Below, piece after piece: positions 4,085 through 12,345 of a DNA stretch of 25,203 nt. This DNA is from a bacterium. Lineage in GTDB: Bacteria; Patescibacteriota; Gracilibacteria; JAUYGZ01. The notes under the pieces were generated by a model that did not search any database, was not told where the DNA came from, and worked only from the letters and a program-made list of their open reading frames with translations. How positions within the stretch are numbered: position 1 is the first letter of the stretch; every line of letters starts with the position of its first letter. The translations under genes and the position numbers were made by a program. The stretch is taken from positions 1 to 25,203 of the forward strand of contig JAUYKR010000108.1 in assembly GCA_030699855.1 (NCBI GenBank), read 5' to 3'.

Positions 4085-5107
4085 CTACTGTACGTCAGCA
4101 ATGGAAATCAAGGCTCCACCGTCCTTATCGATTTCGACGAATTGTCGCTTCTTCTCCGACTTCCAGGAACCGGTGTTGAAATACACACCATCGCCAAGCT
4201 GTTTGAAGCCAGCCTTGTGGGCGTGGCCGAACACCACGTAGGCGTAGTCCTCGCCCTCGATATACTGCTTGGCCAAGCCCTCTAATTTTTGGCTGCAATC
4301 AATCTTCTTTTCACTGACATACTGGGCAAAGTGCAGGGCTTTTTCCGCGTAACTGGCATGCTGCTTGAGCAGGTCGGCCTGCCCCCCTTCCAGGCCGATC
4401 TTTTGGATAAGCTGAGCGATGATTTTCCCGTTCGCCTCCACCTTTTTCTTGGATTTAAAGTCTTTGGCCTCAGAAAAATCGTCGTACTGATGGCCATGGC
4501 TGGCGTAGATATTGAGCGGTTCGTTGGAATAGTCGTAGGCAAAGACGATAGGCGCGCTGAAAAACTTTTGCCCAACCAGCAGGCTGATAAAGCAATCGTG
4601 ATTGCCCACCAGATAGGTCACCTGAACCTCTTGAGCCAGACGGCTGAGGCGGTCGAAGACCGGTTTGTAAAGCAGGTACGTGTGGAAGACATCGCCCTTG
4701 AGCATTTCGATCATGTCCCCCACCAGCACCAGCTCGGTGGCGTTTTCCTGGGCGTAGTCGAAGAATTTCATCAGATCGCTGATTAAGTCCGGCGGCGTTT
4801 CCACCGACAGGTGCAGATCGCTGATGAAGAGCACCCGGTCGGCTTTCTTCTTGGGCGGATTGATGGCCTTTTCCAGTTCGTGGAAGTAAGCATGCTGGGT
4901 ATTGACCGTGTACAGGACCAACGCCCCCTGGCGAACTTTATTCAAGACCCCCTGCTTCACCATGGCGTTGAGTTCGCGGTGAGTAGTTCCGGGAGAAGTC
5001 TTGAGCTGCTGGGCGATTTCCAGGCCGTAAAGAGGCTGTTCAAGGTCTTTGAAGAACATCTTGAGCATCTTCAGGCGGATCTTGGAATGGGTCAACCAGG
5101 TAAACAT
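4085..5107 (-). CDS. Winged-HTH fused to a calcineurin-like (LpxH/YbbF-type) metallophosphoesterase
   Basis: N-terminal wHTH (SKIRLKMLKMFF...YGLEIAQQLKTSPGTTHRELNAMVKQGVL) followed by the phosphoesterase motifs SDLH, GD, GNHD, HGH, GHAH and NTGSW. Confidence 0.85.
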   Translation of the reverse strand: MFTWLTHSKIRLKMLKMFFKDLEQPLYGLEIAQQLKTSPGTTHRELNAMVKQGVLNKVRQGALVLYTVNTQHAYFHELEKAINPPKKKADRVLFISDLHLSVETPPDLISDLMKFFDYAQENATELVLVGDMIEMLKGDVFHTYLLYKPVFDRLSRLAQEVQVTYLVGNHDCFISLLVGQKFFSAPIVFAYDYSNEPLNIYASHGHQYDDFSEAKDFKSKKKVEANGKIIAQLIQKIGLEGGQADLLKQHASYAEKALHFAQYVSEKKIDCSQKLEGLAKQYIEGEDYAYVVFGHAHKAGFKQLGDGVYFNTGSWKSEKKRQFVEIDKDGGALISIADVQ

Positions 5108-5235
5108 GGCTTGCAGCTGCTAGCAAAAAAAGACAAAGCCATTGTAGCCCGTCATGAACAGGAAAAAAGCCGAGAAGTAGTACGAGATCATTTTTCTTTT
5201 TTTGAGAAAAGGCCATATTTAACCATACGAGAAAG

Positions 5236-5251
5236 TTAACAAAATTGTTAA
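5236..5251. promoter_or_regulatory. Palindromic operator-like site TTAACAA-AA-TTGTTAA
   Basis: Perfect 7-2-7 palindrome about 130 bp upstream of the wHTH-phosphoesterase start. It overlaps a candidate minus-strand promoter (TTAACA-18-TATGGT). An extra half-site TTGTTAA lies at 5262-5268. Confidence 0.45.
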
Positions 5252-5312
5252 TTTGCACGTATTGTTAAAACTTATGCTTCGGTATCCCACCTTGCCGAAT
5301 AACAGAAAGGAT

Positions 5313-5428
5313 CGCTGTGCAATCCGTTTTGGCGGCAAGTCCTTGTAAATGGCCGAGAGGGACGCGCCGGGGTGGTGGGCCTCACCTCCGGAAGAAAGTA
5401 CTTACCCACCAAAACGGATCGCACAGTG
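5313..5428. ncRNA. Candidate structured RNA or long hairpin (about 26-bp stem, 59-nt interior with a sub-hairpin)
   Basis: 5315-5340 pairs with 5400-5426, and three mismatches become G:U pairs on the minus strand. Inner helix CCGG-GGTG/CACC-T-CCGG. No Rfam family was recognised. Confidence 0.4.
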
Positions 5429-5591
5429 CTGACTGGAGAGATGTAAAAAATCCCTCCAACGATCTTTCAAGGATCCATTGCATTGCAGGGTGATTGCCAC
5501 CCCACAATCATTATTTAAAAAGACGATTCTATATATAGCATATAAATTTTAATTTGTCAAGTACATAGAACTCATACACGCTATGAAAATA

Positions 5592-5620
5592 TTGACAAAA
5601 GCAAAAATATTCTTTATTAT
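5592..5620 (+). promoter_or_regulatory. sigma70-type promoter for the lipoprotein gene
   Basis: TTGACA-17 nt-TATTAT, 32 nt upstream of ATG 5653. Confidence 0.75.
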
Positions 5621-5652
5621 GAGATGAATATTTTATTACTTTTACTTAGTAT

Positions 5653-6429
5653 ATGTCTACAACTCCTGATACACCGCGAGGTGATGAAGCAAGAAACCCA
5701 AGCTCCAGGGTGGGAAAACTGGGGGTGTTGGGCGCGGGACTACTCGCGGCCGGCTGCGCCACCACGGGCGAGATGGAAGCAATAAAGCAGAAAGTAGATG
5801 CTCTTCAAGCCGACGTGGCCAGTGCTGCCAGCGCCACCCTCCATCTTTCCGCACAAGAAGTGGCTGAACTGAGAGGTTACAAAAAAAGATTCAGAGAAAT
5901 GGATTCATTCTTCGAAGAAAGGGAGTTGAAAGCGGCGGAGGAAAAGGAGAAAGAGGTCCTGACAGGAGACGGGCCGGAAAGCCTGCGCGGAAGCATAGCA
6001 GGTGTCCATAGTGCCGGACTCCACCTGGCGCTGGCAATTGCCCAGGCGGAAGTGGGAGCGGTTCATAGCGCGATACCTCTTCAAGAAAAAACGAAACGGT
6101 TTAATGCGCACACAGATGCAGTGCATAACTTCAACGCCTACAAAACAACTCTGGAGACAAGAATCAACAGGGCAAGGAAGTTGGGCGTTACAGTTGGAGC
6201 TGAACTCTTTCCCGATCCCGACTGGACGACCGTTCCTGGTTACCCGGAATTGGAAGCATATCTTGCCAAACAATTTGCTAAAGGGCGCACTGTCGAAGAT
6301 TTCCTTGAAGAGAGAAAGATAGTGGTTTTACCCAAGTTGGAGTCAGAGGCTGATTATACTTGTACTACACCCACGCCTGTACCTGCCACCCCTCCTGCAG
6401 CAAATCCTGAACCTCCATCGGATTTGTAA
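5653..6429 (+). CDS. Hypothetical lipoprotein with an N-terminal coiled coil and a Pro-rich C-terminus
   Basis: Hydrophobic stretch ending in the lipobox LAAG-C35, then EMEAIKQKVDALQADV (heptad-like). Has its own promoter. No family recognised. Confidence 0.75.
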   Translation: MSTTPDTPRGDEARNPSSRVGKLGVLGAGLLAAGCATTGEMEAIKQKVDALQADVASAASATLHLSAQEVAELRGYKKRFREMDSFFEERELKAAEEKEKEVLTGDGPESLRGSIAGVHSAGLHLALAIAQAEVGAVHSAIPLQEKTKRFNAHTDAVHNFNAYKTTLETRINRARKLGVTVGAELFPDPDWTTVPGYPELEAYLAKQFAKGRTVEDFLEERKIVVLPKLESEADYTCTTPTPVPATPPAANPEPPSDL

Positions 6430-6507
6430 ATCACCCCGGTACTGGCGCAAAAGGAAAAGCCCAAGCTGTAAGAATGGCTGTTTAACTTGGCGATCTGACA
6501 CAGCATA

Positions 6508-8091
6508 CTAGTTGTCCCCTAAAATGTCTTTGGCGACGGCCAAAGCTGCCTCCTTTAGCTGTTCGGCCGTAGGGGCAGCGATGCCGTGTAATTTTGCCGT
6601 TAAGGCCTTGCCAAGTGCTTGAGTACTAATTTTTTTTGAATCGAGAGTCACACCAGCTTCTTGTGCTACCTTTAGAGTGTCTCTCAACACACTTGCACAT
6701 TTTGATCTATTCGTCCCAAAATTGGCATCTGTGATAGCATCAAGAGCGACGGTCTTAGCTTTCTCCAGATTATTAGTGCCATCTTGTGGAGGTGTCGCCG
6801 CCTCCGCGGCAGCGGCTCTTTTGGCATCCGCAGCGGCCTCTCTGAGTTCGCGTAAACGGTTGCGAAACTGACTCTGGCTTTCTCCTGGGCGTTTTCCTTG
6901 CTGGATAGCCTGCTGGAGAGCTTGTTCAGCTTGGGTCACAACGGGCTGGCCGTCGGAAGCAGGCTCAGGAGCTGGTTGAGGTTCAGCCGGTTGCTGAGCG
7001 GGAGGAGCAGGCTCAGGTTCAGCCACGGATTCTGGAGCAACCGAAGCAGCGCCTTCTTCTGCAGGCGCCTCCTCGTCACCGGCGGGAGGTGGAGCCTGCA
7101 CGCCGGTAGCTGAAGTGACCGGTACAGAAGAGGCAGAATTTGCATCAACAGCGGCAGCACCTTCAGAAGCTCCCTCCGCCGGAGCGTCTGCCGCAGATGG
7201 AGTATCGCCAGTCGGCCCTTCGGGCCAGAAGTGGTTGTAAGCAGAATTACCACCTACCGGCAGCCCGGAAAGCGTTAGGAGAATAACAACCTTCTGTATC
7301 CATGGGTTATTGTTGAATATCCACGGATACCTTCCTATAAATTTGATGAGCGCCATTAATGTACCTGCTTTTTTTTCCACCTCCAACAGCGGCCTCTTGA
7401 ACTCAATTCCCACGCTTGTGAGCTTGTCCAAAGTAAGGTCTCGCAACATGCCCACGGAGACTTCGTCACCGGCTGTTTTCGTCAAGATAAGACCTAGTTC
7501 CTTAGCATGTACTCGAAGCGGATTCTTGCCAATATGGGCGCCAATTCTGCCCCTGATCCCTGGCGAGGTAATACCGAGGGCTCGGGAAACTTCGGCATAG
7601 GGGATTTTTGTGGCGCCGCGATGCTCTTCCAGCAAGGCGGTTAATCTGTCATTAAAATTTTTTTCTGCCTCTTTTTTGATCCTCGCTACTTCATCAGGTT
7701 CTAAAGCACCATCGGAGGAACGTGGGGATGCGTCCGAAGCTGGAGCTGAAGACACGACTGGAGAAGCTGGAATGGGTGGGCGTGGCAGACTATCGCCTGA
7801 GTCTGAATTCCACAGGCTGAGTTCATCATCATCTAATTCGAAATCAGGCACCTCGTCGTCAAAATTTATAATCCCATCATCAGCTTCTACCAGCCTTGGC
7901 TCATCAGCCAGCCGTCGTACGTCATCGGCATTGAACTTCATGGACAATCCATCGCGAAAACCGCGCAATTCACCCTGGGAAACCAGTTTTTTCAGTTCCT
8001 CTTCGTCGATTCGGAGCTCACTCAAAACATCTTCAAAGCTCATATATTCCGGAGGTCTGGAACCTGGCGCTGAAGAAGGGCCGGATGACAT
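6508..8091 (-). CDS. Hypothetical protein: excisionase/MerR-like HTH, acidic linker, second HTH-like segment, probable TM, Pro/Ala/Glu-rich linker, novel C-terminal helical domain
   Basis: YMSFEDVLSELRIDEEELKKLVSQGELRGFRDGLSMKFNADDVRRL (HTH_17-like); IPYAEVSRALGITSPGIRGRI; hydrophobic WIQKVVILLTLSGLPVG; C-terminal domain aligns with that of 8164-9669. Confidence 0.75.
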   Translation of the reverse strand: MSSGPSSAPGSRPPEYMSFEDVLSELRIDEEELKKLVSQGELRGFRDGLSMKFNADDVRRLADEPRLVEADDGIINFDDEVPDFELDDDELSLWNSDSGDSLPRPPIPASPVVSSAPASDASPRSSDGALEPDEVARIKKEAEKNFNDRLTALLEEHRGATKIPYAEVSRALGITSPGIRGRIGAHIGKNPLRVHAKELGLILTKTAGDEVSVGMLRDLTLDKLTSVGIEFKRPLLEVEKKAGTLMALIKFIGRYPWIFNNNPWIQKVVILLTLSGLPVGGNSAYNHFWPEGPTGDTPSAADAPAEGASEGAAAVDANSASSVPVTSATGVQAPPPAGDEEAPAEEGAASVAPESVAEPEPAPPAQQPAEPQPAPEPASDGQPVVTQAEQALQQAIQQGKRPGESQSQFRNRLRELREAAADAKRAAAAEAATPPQDGTNNLEKAKTVALDAITDANFGTNRSKCASVLRDTLKVAQEAGVTLDSKKISTQALGKALTAKLHGIAAPTAEQLKEAALAVAKDILGDN

Positions 8092-8127
8092 ATTTATAAA
8101 GAAATGAGGTATTTATCCTTTCTTGAA

Positions 8128-8156
8128 ATTATACCATATTCTTATTCGCTTTTCAA
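8128..8156 (-). promoter_or_regulatory. sigma70-type promoter for 6508-8091
   Basis: Minus strand TTGAAA-17 nt-TATAAT with an extended -10 (TGG TATAAT), 36 nt upstream of ATG 8091. Confidence 0.8.
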
Positions 8157-8163
8157 ATCCCGA

Positions 8164-9669
8164 TTAGGGGATTTGGAAGTAGAGCTTGAGGGTATCGATC
8201 GTCCCGCCAAGCACTCGCCTGACCAGGCATTGTACGGCTACCACTATTCCTTCTTCGCTCGCTTTTTCATCCTCCGGCAAGCCCTCAATTTCTTCGCCCA
8301 ATAGTGCTCCCAGCTTGGCGGTGGTCAGGGCGCTACCGTCTACTTTCAGCTTACCCTCGTTTCTGGCGGTCAGAAAGACTCCGCGCAGAGCCTGGAGAAG
8401 CTGGTAGCGGTTTCCGAAGTTTTGCCTGGCCGCGTCTTCGGCAGAGCTGAAGGCGGTGGATAGCGCATCGAACCTTTCAGCTAGAACTTGATATTTCTCA
8501 ACATCAAGATCCTCTTTCAACTGCAGTGGTCCTCCAAGAAAACCTGAGCCCAACAATCCGCCCAGTTTGAGGCTTGCCACCATCCTGGCCGTCACTCGCT
8601 CATCTTCCGGATCAACCGTTGTCGCTCCCGTATCCGTGCCCGGCACATCAAGCGCTGGCTCAGGCTGAGGTTCTGGTGTCGGTGTTGGTACCGGCTCAGG
8701 CTGAGGTTCAGGTTCTGGAGTTGGCTCTGGTTCAGGTGTTGGTTCAGGTTCGGAAGTTGGTTCAGGCTCAATTGGTAATGGACCAAAGACCGCATCATCT
8801 TCTGGCTCAGGCCCAACAGCCCCGACTGGACCAACAGGAGGATCTGTCAGCGTCAATCCGCTGGTATCAACAGCCGCGGCTGTCCCCTCGCCTGGCTCAC
8901 CGCCCACATCGGCATCATCTTCAGATAGCTCAGCCGGATTGATCCCGGCCAGGAGCTGCGCTGCCGTTCTTTGGGTAGCCATTGTCTCGATAAGGCGCAA
9001 TGTTCGTTCATCCTCCGCTTGTCTGCCCGAAGCTATGGCAGATAGATACACCAGCATGGCAATGGCGGCGACAGTCAAAATGGGAGTAACAACCTGCAAC
9101 CTCCTTTCCAGGCTCCCACGCTTTCGATTGCTTGCGGCAAGTTGCTGAACAAACTCTACCGGAACCCGCTGGCCCAGCTCGCGGAAGCGCTGGGGAATGA
9201 TCTGTTCGGCTGCGGCGACTACTGAAGACGCTTTGATGACTCCGGCATCTCGAATGAGCAAGCCCCCGTCCACCAAAGGTTGAATGGCCTGATCTGGTTT
9301 ACCCATTTCATATGGGATAGCAAGATCATCCAATATGACTTGATTTGACATGGGTTCATCGCTGCCTGCAGCTCTGGCATAGTCACCTATGCTCAAGATA
9401 CTCTTTACCTGGCTCAAAAGACTATTTCGGGTAATAGTGTCGGGATCGTCTGCCTGATCAAGATTCAAACCTCCGCCATACTCTTGTTCGAGCAGTCCCA
9501 ACACCTGAACATCGCTTATTCCCAGCATTTCGGCTGCCTCATCCACAGTTAATAGCCCATCTTCGCCCATTTGTTCCAAACGAGCCTTAACATCCCTGTA
9601 GTGGGCCGCGTCAAGGTTTCCCGCGCCTTCCGGAGCCTTACCTGTAAGTTCATCAATTTCGAAAGCCAT
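8164..9669 (-). CDS. Hypothetical protein: HTH_17-like motif, TM helix, PEPEPT-rich linker, novel C-terminal domain (paralog of 6508-8091)
   Basis: LLTVDEAAEMLGIS; TM VVTPILTVAAIAMLVYLSAIASG; (PE/PT/PQ)n linker; NFGNR...LR...LG..L..G C-terminal motif shared with the neighbouring gene. Confidence 0.75.
   Translation of the reverse strand: MAFEIDELTGKAPEGAGNLDAAHYRDVKARLEQMGEDGLLTVDEAAEMLGISDVQVLGLLEQEYGGGLNLDQADDPDTITRNSLLSQVKSILSIGDYARAAGSDEPMSNQVILDDLAIPYEMGKPDQAIQPLVDGGLLIRDAGVIKASSVVAAAEQIIPQRFRELGQRVPVEFVQQLAASNRKRGSLERRLQVVTPILTVAAIAMLVYLSAIASGRQAEDERTLRLIETMATQRTAAQLLAGINPAELSEDDADVGGEPGEGTAAAVDTSGLTLTDPPVGPVGAVGPEPEDDAVFGPLPIEPEPTSEPEPTPEPEPTPEPEPQPEPVPTPTPEPQPEPALDVPGTDTGATTVDPEDERVTARMVASLKLGGLLGSGFLGGPLQLKEDLDVEKYQVLAERFDALSTAFSSAEDAARQNFGNRYQLLQALRGVFLTARNEGKLKVDGSALTTAKLGALLGEEIEGLPEDEKASEEGIVVAVQCLVRRVLGGTIDTLKLYFQIP
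8656..8770 (-). repeat. Degenerate coding tandem repeat encoding PEPEPT/PEPQPEP
   Basis: Repeated GGCTCAGG/GGTTCAGG/GGTTCTGG units on the plus strand; GGCTCAGGCTGAGGTTC occurs twice. Confidence 0.8.
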
Positions 9670-9699
9670 AAAATCAGCATGGTTAAAAACTTGGTATAG

Positions 9700-9728
9700 T
9701 TATTACCAGCAAATTATTTATCTGTCAA
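9700..9728 (-). promoter_or_regulatory. Possible sigma70-type promoter for 8164-9669
   Basis: Minus strand TTGACA-17 nt-TAATAA with TG upstream of the -10. The -35 is perfect and the -10 is weak. Confidence 0.5.
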
Positions 9729-9749
9729 GGAAAAGTTCGATTGGAAGGG

Positions 9750-12197
9750 CTAAACCTTCTCTTTTCTTTTGGGCTTAGAACACACCGGGCACACCAACTC
9801 CCCTTCTGCCTGCCCCTTTTTGGGCTTCTTTTGCACCATCAGCTGCTTGGGGCCGCAAACCGGGCAGGTCTTACCGGCAACGGGCAGATCCCAAAAGGCG
9901 GATTTACAATCCGGATATTTATTGCAGCCGTAGAAGATTTTGCCACGGCGGGTCTTTTTTTCGACGATCTCACCCCCCTCACAAGCGACACAGGACACGC
10001 CGATGAGCTTCTCATTCTTCTGAATATACTTGCATTTGGGGTAGCCGCTGCAGCCGACGAATTTGCCGAAGCGCCCCTGGCGGTGGATTAAATCTTCGCC
10101 GCAGTCCGGACATTTTTCGCCGGTTGGAGTGGGCTTGACGATTTCTCCGGGCGTTCCGTCCGGGTTAATCGGCCTGGCAGCCTTGCAAGCGGGAAATCCC
10201 GTGCAGGACAGGAATTTGCCAAAACGACCGAGCTTGATTTCCATCGGCTTACCGCAGTCCTCGCAGACCACGTCGGTTTTTTGAGTGATGACCTCATCGC
10301 GCTTGATCGACTCCTTTTTTTCTTCCAAAACCTGCTGAAAAGGGCTGAAGAACGAGCGGATCATATCCACCCAATCCACCTTGCCCTCGGCGACCTCGTC
10401 GAGCTGATCTTCGACCCGGGCGGTAAAGTCATAGCTGAGGATGTCGTGAAAGTGACGCACCAAAAAGTCGTTGACGACCATGCCGACATCGGTGGGATGC
10501 AGGCGCTTGTCTTCCTTCTTTTCCACGTAGTTGCGAACCTGAATAGTGTTGATGGTGGGCGCGTAGGTGGAAGGACGGCCGATACCGAGAGATTCCAGCT
10601 TTTTGACCAAGCTGGCTTCCGTATAGCGGGCCGGCGGCTTGGTAAAGTGCTGGGAGGGAATCAGGCCGGGAATTTTCGGTTCGATGGCGTAAGCCGCCTG
10701 AAGCTGTTCGAGTTTTTTCTGCTGGGCGCCGCTCAGATTCATCTCATCGCCCATTTCGTATTCTTCCCGCTCAGCCTTGGCGGCCTGACTCAGGACAGTC
10801 GTTTCCGTCGGTTGTTCTTGGAGGATGTTAGCCATATGTAGCAACTGCCCCTTCTCGAGCGCCGGTAAGATTCGCTCCTTGCTGGCCGACTCATACACCT
10901 TCATGTAGCCGGGAAAGACAATCACCTGCCCTTCGGCAGTGAATTGATGAGGCCCTGCGGAAATGGTGACGGTAGTTTTTTTCAGTTGGGCGGGGGCCAT
11001 CTGACTGGCGATGGTTCGCTTCCAGATCAGGCTGTAAAGCCGGAGCTGCTGGTCATCCAGGTACTGCTCGGCATCCTTTGGTCGAAGGGAAAGATCGGTG
11101 GGGCGAATGGCCTCGTGGGCCTCTTGAGCATTTTTTGATTTCCCTTTGAAGATGCGCGGACTGTCCAGAGCGTACGTTTTTCCGTACTCCTTGGTGATCA
11201 CGTCACGAGCCTTAGCCAGGGCTTGGTCGGAAAGCGTGACCGAATCGGTACGCATATAGGTGATAAAACCGCCATCGAAGCCTTTCTTTTTGACGTTGCC
11301 CTCATAGAGACGCTGAGCGACCATCATGGTTTGTTTGACCCCGAAGCCGAGCTTGGTGGAAGCTTCCTGCTGAAGCGTAGAGGTGGTAAAAGGTGCGGAG
11401 GGAGAAGAACTGGTATCTTTTTGTTCAATGTCGGTTATGCGATGTTCCTGCCCTTTGAGGCCATCGAGGATTTTTGACATTTCCTGGGCGGATCCGACTT
11501 TAGATTTTTTGTGATCCAGCTTGTCGCCGTTGACGGCAGACAACTCTGCTTCGAACTGAGGGTCGGCGTAAACACTGGTGAGCTTCCAAAACTCGTCAGC
11601 GCCGAAGGCCTGAATTTCCCGCTCACGCTCGACCACGATGCGAACCGCCACCGACTGCACCCGCCCCGCCGACAGGCCGTAGCGGATTTTCGTCCACAGA
11701 AGCGGCGACAGTTTGTAGCCGACCAGACGATCGAGAATACGGCGAGCCTGCTGAGCGTCAAACAGGCGCACGTCTACCACCCGGGGGTGTTCCATGGCCT
11801 CGAGAATGGCCTTCTTGGTAATTTCATGAAAGACGATCCGCTTGGTCGTCTTGGGATCCAGTTTGAGGATGTGAGCCAGGTGGTAACCGATCGCCTCTCC
11901 CTCTCGGTCTTCGTCAGTCGCGATCCACACCTGGGGTCCGTTTTTCATTTCTGCTTTCAAGTCCTGCACCACTTTCCGTTTGCCATCTTTGATGACGTAA
12001 AGCGGAGCGAAGTCGTGATCGACATCAATGGCCAGGCTGGCGTAGGACAGTTTTTGCTGAGACGGAGACAGCTCGGTTTTTTTATCGGGCAGATCGCGAA
12101 TATGACCCATCGAGGCCTTGACGGTGTAGCCCTTGCCCAAAAACTTTTGGATCAGCTTGGCCTTGGCCGGTGATTCGACGATGACGAGGTTGGACAT
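9750..12197 (-). CDS. topA: DNA topoisomerase I (type IA) with C-terminal zinc ribbons
   Basis: Start reassigned to MSNLVIVESPAKAK. Motifs ATDEDREGEAI, SAGRVQS, ITYMRTDS, AQEAHEAIRPT, GIGRPSTY, and repeated CxxC zinc-ribbon units. Confidence 0.97.
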   Translation of the reverse strand: MSNLVIVESPAKAKLIQKFLGKGYTVKASMGHIRDLPDKKTELSPSQQKLSYASLAIDVDHDFAPLYVIKDGKRKVVQDLKAEMKNGPQVWIATDEDREGEAIGYHLAHILKLDPKTTKRIVFHEITKKAILEAMEHPRVVDVRLFDAQQARRILDRLVGYKLSPLLWTKIRYGLSAGRVQSVAVRIVVEREREIQAFGADEFWKLTSVYADPQFEAELSAVNGDKLDHKKSKVGSAQEMSKILDGLKGQEHRITDIEQKDTSSSPSAPFTTSTLQQEASTKLGFGVKQTMMVAQRLYEGNVKKKGFDGGFITYMRTDSVTLSDQALAKARDVITKEYGKTYALDSPRIFKGKSKNAQEAHEAIRPTDLSLRPKDAEQYLDDQQLRLYSLIWKRTIASQMAPAQLKKTTVTISAGPHQFTAEGQVIVFPGYMKVYESASKERILPALEKGQLLHMANILQEQPTETTVLSQAAKAEREEYEMGDEMNLSGAQQKKLEQLQAAYAIEPKIPGLIPSQHFTKPPARYTEASLVKKLESLGIGRPSTYAPTINTIQVRNYVEKKEDKRLHPTDVGMVVNDFLVRHFHDILSYDFTARVEDQLDEVAEGKVDWVDMIRSFFSPFQQVLEEKKESIKRDEVITQKTDVVCEDCGKPMEIKLGRFGKFLSCTGFPACKAARPINPDGTPGEIVKPTPTGEKCPDCGEDLIHRQGRFGKFVGCSGYPKCKYIQKNEKLIGVSCVACEGGEIVEKKTRRGKIFYGCNKYPDCKSAFWDLPVAGKTCPVCGPKQLMVQKKPKKGQAEGELVCPVCSKPKRKEKV

Positions 12198-12215
12198 GGA
12201 AAGGGTATTTATTGC

Positions 12216-12345
12216 CAGCATCACTCCCTTTTCTTTTCTTGCTGCGGACTGCCCGGTTGTAGGTCTCGTTTATTTTCCCGTTTGCTGGCGTCTCCCTGCC
12301 TGCCGGCAGGCAGGCTCGCTGCGAAAATAAAAGGGAGTGAGGCTG
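12216..12345 (+). repeat. Copy 4 of the arm-DR-cargo-DR-arm intergenic element (130 bp), in the predicted topA leader
   Basis: 23-bp inverted repeat with 21/23 matches (12216-12238 / 12323-12345) enclosing TTGCTGC-GGACTGCC...GGCAGGC-TCGCTGC. Both 7-mers are identical to those of copy 3. Confidence 0.85.
12295..12314. repeat. 20-bp perfect palindrome CCTGCCTGCCGGCAGGCAGG
   Basis: Self-complementary; a motif I recall as a common intergenic palindrome in CPR genomes. Here it is nested at the right end of element copy 4. Confidence 0.8.

Follow-up and report, generated by a model that had tools for sequence, protein, structure and literature searches.

An orphan helical domain probably shared by two adjacent envelope-type genes of a Peribacteria bacterium

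Introduction

Bacteria of the candidate phyla radiation (CPR) are believed to live in attachment to other cells. Obvious candidates for making such contacts are their lineage-specific envelope proteins, of which almost none, to our knowledge, has been characterised. Two adjacent genes, P0001 and P0002, raise the question of whether they encode proteins of this type. They lie in positions 1–25,203 of contig JAUYKR010000108.1 of assembly GCA_030699855.1 (this whole stretch is hereafter called the window), from a Peribacteria (Peregrinibacteria, CPR) bacterium of a groundwater metagenome. An initial annotation made from the sequence alone had read both products as tandem paralogues with an excisionase-like helix-turn-helix (HTH) motif at the start, a hydrophobic segment, a long Pro/Ala/Glu linker, and a homologous C-terminal domain placed outside the cell, and had suggested one-component sensors across the membrane or tethers of DNA to it, possibly with a role in sensing contact with a host. 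We asked whether the shared domain is real and has relatives, whether the proposed heads and membrane segments are present in both proteins, and what the pair might do. We found a weak, probably genuine paralogy of an orphan domain, attached in the two proteins to heads of different kinds.

Results

The C-terminal domains are probably paralogous

Default BLASTP returned no alignment between P0001 and P0002, either with the full proteins or with their C-terminal parts, which we attribute to failed seeding rather than to a lack of similarity, because other methods do align the pair. Smith–Waterman alignment of residues 425–527 of P0001 with residues 380–501 of P0002 (BLOSUM62, gap costs 11/1) scored 67, compared with 27.7 ± 4.9 and a maximum of 54 for 5000 composition-preserving shuffles (Gumbel P of 2e-5). 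BLASTP with a word size of 2 gave 28.9 bits with an E-value of 3e-6, or 26.9 bits and 1.5e-5 after composition adjustment. The phmmer E-values of 0.5 and 1.8 against the 8097 open reading frames (ORFs) of the genome correspond to about 6e-5 to 2e-4 per pair. Single-sequence hhalign gave a P of 1.2e-4 with a probability of 55% over the full length, and 5e-3 with 7% for the C-terminal segments alone. Pairwise P-values across the methods range from 3e-6 to 5e-3, and the register of about 80 residues is identical in Smith–Waterman, sensitive BLASTP, phmmer, and hhalign, following the pattern N-F-G-x-N-R ... L-R ... E-G ... D ... T ... L-G at roughly 30% identity. The two proteins are also reciprocal best non-self Smith–Waterman matches among all 8097 ORFs (67 vs 53 and 58 for the next best). 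The similarity between their N-terminal and middle regions was not significant.

The predicted structures agree with this register. AlphaFold2 with the two-sequence alignment folded the P0001 domain into four helices (residues 437–455, 462–479, 490–500, and 509–524, corresponding to model residues 13–31, 38–55, 66–76, and 85–100) with a pLDDT of 80 and a pTM of 0.65. In a single-sequence model of P0002, for which P0001 was not used, residues 390–495 reached pLDDT values of 72–87 with helices at 390–416, 421–437, 450–462, and 472–486, which coincide with the four P0001 helices after mapping via the sequence alignment. We therefore consider the C-terminal domains, despite their weak similarity, to be probable paralogues.

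The shared domain is an orphan

In Pfam and NCBIfam the shared domain has no match to a known family, and neither protein contains a catalytic domain. A profile built from the two copies and searched with HMMER against 1.84 billion protein cluster representatives returned only P0001 and three repeat proteins (a DUF11/DUF7507 protein, an RpoA-CTD repeat protein, and a DUF285/LRR protein). We rejected these three as artefacts because their scores are sums of weak repeats. P0002 itself was missing from the results, so this library covers the population incompletely. When each C-terminal domain was searched in tblastn fashion against 200 genomes of the class, only noise (E ≥ 1e-3) appeared.

Structural searches pointed the same way. 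We took a Foldseek E-value below 1e-3, or a Z-score well over the background of helical bundles, as the mark of a known fold, and all values fell short of it. The best Foldseek E-values were 0.64 against the PDB and 0.41 against the AFDB clusters, with nothing specific among them. A wide sweep with VIA-align, which is independent of Foldseek, gave a best Z-score of 6.6, a value that falls in the background stated for helical models, and the ESM Atlas yielded template modelling scores (TM-scores) of at most 0.53 without a specific match. The shared domain is a small helical bundle without known relatives, and these two genes are its only known carriers.

As a third member we considered a 301-residue transmembrane protein encoded downstream of topA in the related genome G003 (L039:816–1721, minus strand). 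It has an E-D-A-A-R-Q motif as in P0002 and an A-K-(D/E)-I-L-G ending as in P0001 (Smith–Waterman P of about 1e-3), and it was rejected with 4.2 bits in the two-copy hidden Markov model (HMM).

The initial annotation had claimed a homologous domain of about 80 residues that belongs to no recognised family, and had proposed AlphaFold with Foldseek, an HMM of the two copies, and HHalign as checks. The homology is supported, though weakly, by all four alignment methods, and the lack of a family holds throughout the sequence and structure searches: the four-helix model found no specific structural match and the HMM no accepted further member. The HHalign check was divided, with P-values in favour of the pair and probabilities that stayed low.

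The heads are of different kinds

The N-terminus of P0001 matches HTH_17 (PF12728) with 17.7–21.2 bits against a cut-off of 27, over profile positions 1–48 of 51. Clear homologues of P0001 are likewise sub-threshold (19–21 bits) in the same register, and residues 15–63 are 72–81% identical to Planctomycetota homologues. Read from the sequence, helix 1 of this module is acidic and helix 2 and the wing are basic, with a net charge of −5 for the HTH as a whole; the basic helix 2 and wing make DNA binding by the P0001 head possible. Word-based searching of the middle region of P0001, beyond the acidic linker, against 5.8 billion proteins returned P0001 alone; the region has an HTH_17 cluster among its structural neighbours in the ESM Atlas (TM-score 0.43/0.54), and it includes a candidate second HTH-like segment (Table 1).

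In P0002, HTH_17 matched with its first 19–21 profile positions only, at 16.2–19.1 bits and an E-value of 0.012 (0.002 in the genome search). The segment has a net charge of −10, and DNA binding by it seems unlikely because it contains nearly no basic residues. It did not match the Planctomycetota-type HTH family of P0001, the hhalign probability against that profile being 0.45%. Clusters of HTH, HTH_17, and MerR type make up most ESM Atlas neighbours of residues 1–192, with TM-scores of only 0.28–0.42. Hence, the segment is best called a degenerate HTH-like segment. We rejected the P0002 head as a homologue of either the N-terminal HTH or the middle region of P0001, neither alignment being significant. 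The P0002 segment does align, non-significantly, in register with residues 151–183 of P0001; taken as a hint, P0001 would be a P0002-like protein with a Planctomycetota-type module placed in front. The cytosolic parts as a whole have net charges of −13 and −14 in P0001 and P0002, respectively.

P0001 belongs to an HTH family typical of Planctomycetota

The homologues of the P0001 head, for example P0003, P0009, and P0014, have about 290–305 residues and come from metagenome-assembled genomes (MAGs) of Planctomycetota where the organism is named, plus one MAG of Dadabacteria. One of them is annotated as "excisionase family DNA binding protein". They are all built alike, comprising an HTH, an acidic linker, a basic patch, one clear transmembrane helix with a Kyte–Doolittle maximum of 2.3–2.6, and 25–34 residues behind it. 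This HTH–acidic linker–transmembrane family is uncharacterised and typical of Planctomycetota.

P0001 carries the conserved N-terminal module of about 55 residues (Y-M-S-F-E ... G-E-L-R-G-F-R-D-G ... K-F-K) with E-values from 4e-15 to 1e-10 and 54–72% identity, and scores 106.8 bits against the HTH-module profile A3. It also resembles the family in the acidic linker that follows the HTH and in a hydrophobic segment equally distant from it. P0001 differs from the family in an additional orphan region of about 130 residues and in the much weaker hydrophobic segment (maximum 1.19), which is followed by 246 residues of spacer and four-helix domain instead of a tail of 25–34 residues. Judged by these sequence features, P0001 is a divergent variant of the family and not a typical member.

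The HTH module is present in three of the seven genomes of the window's family; a sample of 400 other genomes from across the phylum yielded no copy at E ≤ 1e-5. The module of P0001 is up to 81% identical to Planctomycetota sequences, compared with 47–48% to the copies of the same Peribacteria family. A short tree of the module, with poor resolution, did not bring the three Peribacteria copies together. The window copy paired with L050 (support 90/83) and that of G002 with L055 (100/99), and the G006 copy stood in an unresolved polytomy among mostly Planctomycetota rows. With the Peribacteria copies ungrouped and two placed beside Planctomycetota branches, the tree suggests that the module passed between phyla, and this may have happened repeatedly. 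One lake-water culture became enriched in Planctomycetes together with Peribacteria, and an association between them was proposed there but not shown (PMC9040852).

The surroundings of the family gene were seen in Planctomycetota contigs L064–L067. At two loci the HTH–transmembrane gene lies between a small upstream ORF of 124–139 residues and downstream genes of the OmpA family and AMMECR1; a sigma-70-like/CarboxypepD_reg protein is encoded at one locus, and one copy adjoins dnaA.

A clear membrane helix in P0002 and a weak segment in P0001

Hydropathy was scanned according to Kyte–Doolittle with a 19-residue window, for which the classical transmembrane threshold is 1.6. P0002 reaches a maximum of 2.18 at residues 194–212, within a single long helix of residues 187–213 in the AlphaFold2 model. 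The charges of +4 on the N-terminal flank and 0 on the C-terminal flank predict an orientation with the N-terminus inside and the C-terminus outside. P0001 reaches only 1.19, at residues 263–281, and Lys and Gln lie inside the segment. The clear membrane helix of the homologues is located at residues 242–279, at or just before the P0001 segment, with a similar Leu-Pro-Gly-containing core. From this positional correspondence we lean towards a degenerate segment that does span the membrane.

Both spacers are about 100 residues long. The P0002 spacer gave weak matches to TonB polyproline and PARP repeats, and a word-based homologue search with P0002 returned only low-complexity Pro/Glu matches. 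Its Glu-Pro/Thr-Pro stretch is encoded by an 18/36-nucleotide tandem repeat at 8657–8770. Logan contigs of run X1 break in this repeat, and two back-joints with extra letters (8737>8705 and 8751>8669) could be either heterogeneity of repeat length or assembler ambiguity.

The anatomy proposed initially is largely right. The hydrophobic segment had been called clear in P0002 and weaker in P0001, as the scan confirms, and the composition bears out the long Pro/Ala/Glu linkers. The claim that both proteins begin with HTH_17 is supported for P0001, as an HTH_17-like motif with a near-full though sub-threshold profile match and a closely related family, and was overstated for P0002. The transmembrane segment was overstated for P0001. 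For the proposed topology of an internal DNA-binding head and an external domain, the membrane helix is firm in P0002 and the HTH in P0001, and neither protein firmly shows both.

The locus of the pair varies between relatives

P0001 and P0002 are separated by 72 nucleotides and lie directly downstream of topA (Table 1). The region from topA to an HTH–metallophosphoesterase gene (5108–9749) differs between genera of the family when compared with L037–L041. In the same-family genome G002, topA is directly followed by the HTH–metallophosphoesterase gene, purH, a LysM-M23 gene, and lgt, all of them neighbours in the window too, without the pair or the lipoprotein gene of the window; in G001, G003, and G005, other unrelated lipoproteins or transmembrane proteins occupy this spot. 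The pair is thus located in a variable island of envelope genes, in agreement with a report that Peribacteria invest in strain-variable extracellular proteins (PMC4736985). A 786-residue protein of G003 (L039:2107–4467, minus strand) has a similar layout of transmembrane helix, coiled coil, Pro-rich spacer, and C-terminal domain.

The 72-nucleotide gap contains a near-consensus promoter-like site, from which P0001 is probably transcribed independently, to judge by its sequence; P0002 has perhaps its own promoter, too. The sequence was recovered independently: in one study, two groundwater samples gave Logan contigs that are identical over most of both genes, those of two groundwater runs for P0001 and those of run X1 for P0002.

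Table 1. Features of P0001, P0002, and the adjoining topA. Nucleotide positions refer to the window and residues to the encoded protein.
Feature	Residues	Nucleotides	Strand	Basis or description
P0001 gene		6508–8091	−	527 residues; open frame
P0001 C-terminal four-helix domain	437–524	6520–6783	−	AlphaFold2 and alignment to P0002 residues 402–482
P0001 Ala/Pro/Glu-rich spacer	285–385	6937–7239	−	Composition: A 24%, P 20%, E 12%
P0001 weak hydrophobic segment, putative degenerate transmembrane helix	263–284	7240–7305	−	Hydropathy and position in homologues
P0001 orphan helical region	130–262	7306–7704	−	No homologue; includes the candidate second HTH-like segment
P0001 candidate second HTH-like segment	151–183	7543–7641	−	Weak AsnC-type HTH match
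P0001 acidic, Ser/Pro-rich linker, probably disordered	64–129	7705–7902	−	Sequence; acidic linker similarly placed in homologues
P0001 excisionase-like winged HTH (HTH_17-like)	15–63	7903–8049	−	Sub-threshold Pfam match and homologues
Promoter-like site for P0001		8128–8156	−	TTGAAA, 17-nucleotide spacer, TG-extended TATAAT; 11/12 consensus positions; in the gap after the P0002 stop
P0002 gene		8164–9669	−	501 residues; open frame
P0002 C-terminal helical domain	390–495	8185–8502	−	Sole confident part of the single-sequence AlphaFold2 model
P0002 Pro/Glu/Thr-rich spacer (EP and TP repeats)	243–352	8614–8943	−	Composition: P 25%, E 15%, T 12%
P0002 transmembrane helix, N-in/C-out	193–214	9028–9093	−	Kyte–Doolittle, flank charges, AlphaFold2
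P0002 weak acidic HTH-like segment	39–63	9481–9555	−	Partial HTH_17 match
topA		9750–12224	−	Followed by P0002 after an 80-nucleotide gap

Other genes of the window are of the housekeeping type (lgt-like, LysM-M23 peptidase, purH, HTH–metallophosphoesterase, gatA, radA, ychF, and gyrA), and purH agrees with the published capacity of Peribacteria for nucleotide synthesis (PMC4736985). An orphan ORF of 258 residues at 5653–6429 on the plus strand, convergent with P0001, has a lipoprotein-like N-terminus (a hydrophobic run ending in A-A-G-C) and a Pro-rich C-terminus; a Pfam search assigned it to no family. The gene at 4085–5107 (minus strand) fuses an ArsR/DUF7342-like winged-helix N-terminus to a calcineurin-like metallophosphoesterase, a fusion kept beside purH in G001 and G002. 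The source assembly comprises 1.15 Mb in 167 contigs and is 88% complete, the sampled genomes of the class having 0.7–2.0 Mb.

Discussion

What might the two proteins do? The reading that we prefer, and to which we give about even credence, is that P0001 and P0002 are lineage-restricted, non-enzymatic tethers or contact sensors that span the envelope of this Peribacteria bacterium and are encoded in a variable island. P0002 would be a single-pass protein oriented N-in/C-out, with a cytosolic head of about 190 residues that includes the degenerate HTH-like segment, followed by the membrane helix, the Pro/Glu spacer, and an external helical end. P0001 might be a chimera in which the short external tail of the Planctomycetota-type family was swapped for an Ala/Pro/Glu spacer and the four-helix domain; the shared domain might have arisen by an old tandem duplication or by domain transfer. 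The cytosolic head might bring either DNA or a protein to the membrane and dock it there, in P0001 possibly through the basic helix 2 and wing. The Pro-rich spacer, probably stiff (the Pro/Glu repeats of P0002 are of a kind able to form an extended polyproline helix), would cross the wall and hold the four-helix head beyond it, where the head might bind a further copy of itself, its paralogue, material of the wall, or a second cell. Both proteins would act as tethers or contact sensors rather than as enzymes.

Several observations weigh against this reading. The hydrophobic segment of P0001 stays under the classical threshold and contains Lys and Gln, and if P0001 were soluble, the shared domain would lie on opposite sides of the membrane in the two proteins. 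By phmmer, the paralogy falls short of significance across the genome, the hhalign probabilities are low, and the P0001 domain model was built on an alignment of two sequences. The HTH-like segment of P0002 is strongly negative and does not align significantly with the P0001-type HTH profile. No orthologues were found in which conservation or covariation would show. Finally, none of the listed RNA runs was seen to contain the stretch, in a search that covered runs of any kind and was not dedicated to RNA.

One other explanation is that the C-terminal likeness is a chance or compositional match between unrelated helical segments rich in Ala, Leu, Gly, and Lys, encoded by independent orphan neighbours. 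The empty default BLASTP, the phmmer and hhalign values, and the failure of the two-copy profile to find a third member anywhere would fit such a coincidence. None of the 5000 shuffles reached the observed score, however, and the two proteins pick each other as best non-self matches in the genome in one register from four programs; the similarity also lies at the same C-terminal location behind a similar spacer in adjoining genes, and the helix boundaries of the models agree. We consequently regard a chance match as very improbable. A soluble P0001 deserves more weight, although we still think it rather unlikely: P0001 would be a cytosolic HTH protein with long disordered regions, only P0002 would be anchored, and the four-helix domain would be a general-purpose module for interactions, usable on both sides of the membrane. 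The low hydropathy maximum and the Lys and Gln residues speak for it, as does the G002 relative with the same HTH module, in which no hydrophobic stretch is visible by eye (no hydropathy scan was made). Yet a membrane helix follows the HTH in all homologues examined from Planctomycetota, Dadabacteria, and G006, and in the homologues of about 300 residues it overlaps the P0001 segment and has a similar core.

The function of the heads is the other point on which explanations diverge. The HTH-like heads might bind protein and not DNA, as the HTH of RodZ binds MreB, the proteins themselves being rapidly evolving surface or attachment proteins with a cytosolic N-terminal domain as anchor. We hold this to be somewhat unlikely, but it draws on the negative charge of the heads, at the level of the HTH segments and of the whole cytosolic parts, and on the variable island, with lipoproteins at this place in relatives and strain-variable extracellular proteins reported for Peribacteria (PMC4736985). 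It would lack an evident partner, as the genome has only 30–32-bit actin-fold matches for MreB and no RodZ_C. The high conservation of the P0001 HTH across phyla implies that its ligand is conserved, and this ligand might just as well be DNA. At the opposite pole, P0001 and P0002 might be true membrane-bound transcription factors in the style of ToxR and CadC, in which sensing of a ligand or of contact by the external domain would directly govern the binding of DNA by the HTH. The order of HTH, membrane helix, and external domain and the basic helix 2 and wing of P0001 would suit this idea. Nevertheless, the OmpR/PhoB-type Trans_reg_C domain is lacking, the P0002 segment has nearly no basic residues at a net charge of −10, and no target operator can be named. 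The external tail of the Planctomycetota relatives is just 25–34 residues long, implying that the family as such is not a sensor. We judge direct transcriptional control improbable.

Tethers or contact sensors remain our preferred reading, and it can be extended to a bolder one. The head of P0001, and independently that of the G002 relative, might have been captured from Planctomycetota, a phylum proposed, and not shown, as host of Peribacteria. In this genome it would have been fused to a lineage-specific, envelope-spanning paralogue of P0002, so that the pair would be surface contact proteins linking events outside the cell to a host-derived, membrane-tethered module that binds DNA or a partner. 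Residues 130–527 of P0001 would then correspond to the whole of P0002, and the gene tree of the module would point to the host phylum. We consider this scenario very improbable.

An orphan helical domain in two genes of one MAG is by itself unsurprising, and the pair is of an ordinary type among lineage-specific CPR envelope genes, with a mildly interesting chimeric origin. It provides a compact and clearly delimited example of head, membrane helix, probably rigid spacer, and small helical tip. The HTH module is the more useful by-product of the analysis than the domain pair: if its sharing reflects transfer from a host, it would offer a testable hint to the hosts of this Peribacteria family.

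Comparison with known systems

Membership of P0001 and P0002 in the RodZ, ToxR, or TonB families was rejected, as the defining domains were sought and not found. Like TonB and TolA, the pair combines an N-terminal membrane segment, a Glu-Pro-rich spacer, and a small C-terminal domain. The TonB match of the P0002 spacer is restricted to low-complexity polyproline (Pfam E-value 0.45; NCBIfam 18 bits, with the cut-off at 315) and leaves the C-terminal domain unmatched; unlike TonB and TolA, the pair has no TonB_C or TolA domain III, and a large cytosolic head precedes the membrane segment. No ExbBD or TolQR context was seen. With ToxR, CadC, and TcpP, the pair shares the bitopic arrangement of a cytosolic N-terminal head, DNA-binding in those proteins, and an external C-terminal domain, whereas the head there is an OmpR-type winged helix; OmpR/PhoB-type Trans_reg_C was absent among the Pfam matches of both proteins down to E = 1. 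RodZ shows the same order of parts, from a cytosolic HTH for which DNA binding is not essential, through one membrane helix and a Pro-rich spacer, to a small external domain. Its HTH is of the HTH_25/XRE type, in contrast to the HTH_17-like heads here, and the external domain here is all-helical. RodZ_C (PF13464) had no match in the whole 88%-complete genome, and P0001 and P0002 had no Pfam match to it; MreB was represented by only two actin-fold matches of 30–32 bits in frames of 421–423 residues, far under the expected score, in this incomplete genome. The likeness to RodZ and ToxR, which the initial annotation had seen in the layout and not in the domains, holds as an analogy of layout: a cytosolic head, a membrane segment, a Pro-rich spacer, and a small external domain, assembled here from different parts.

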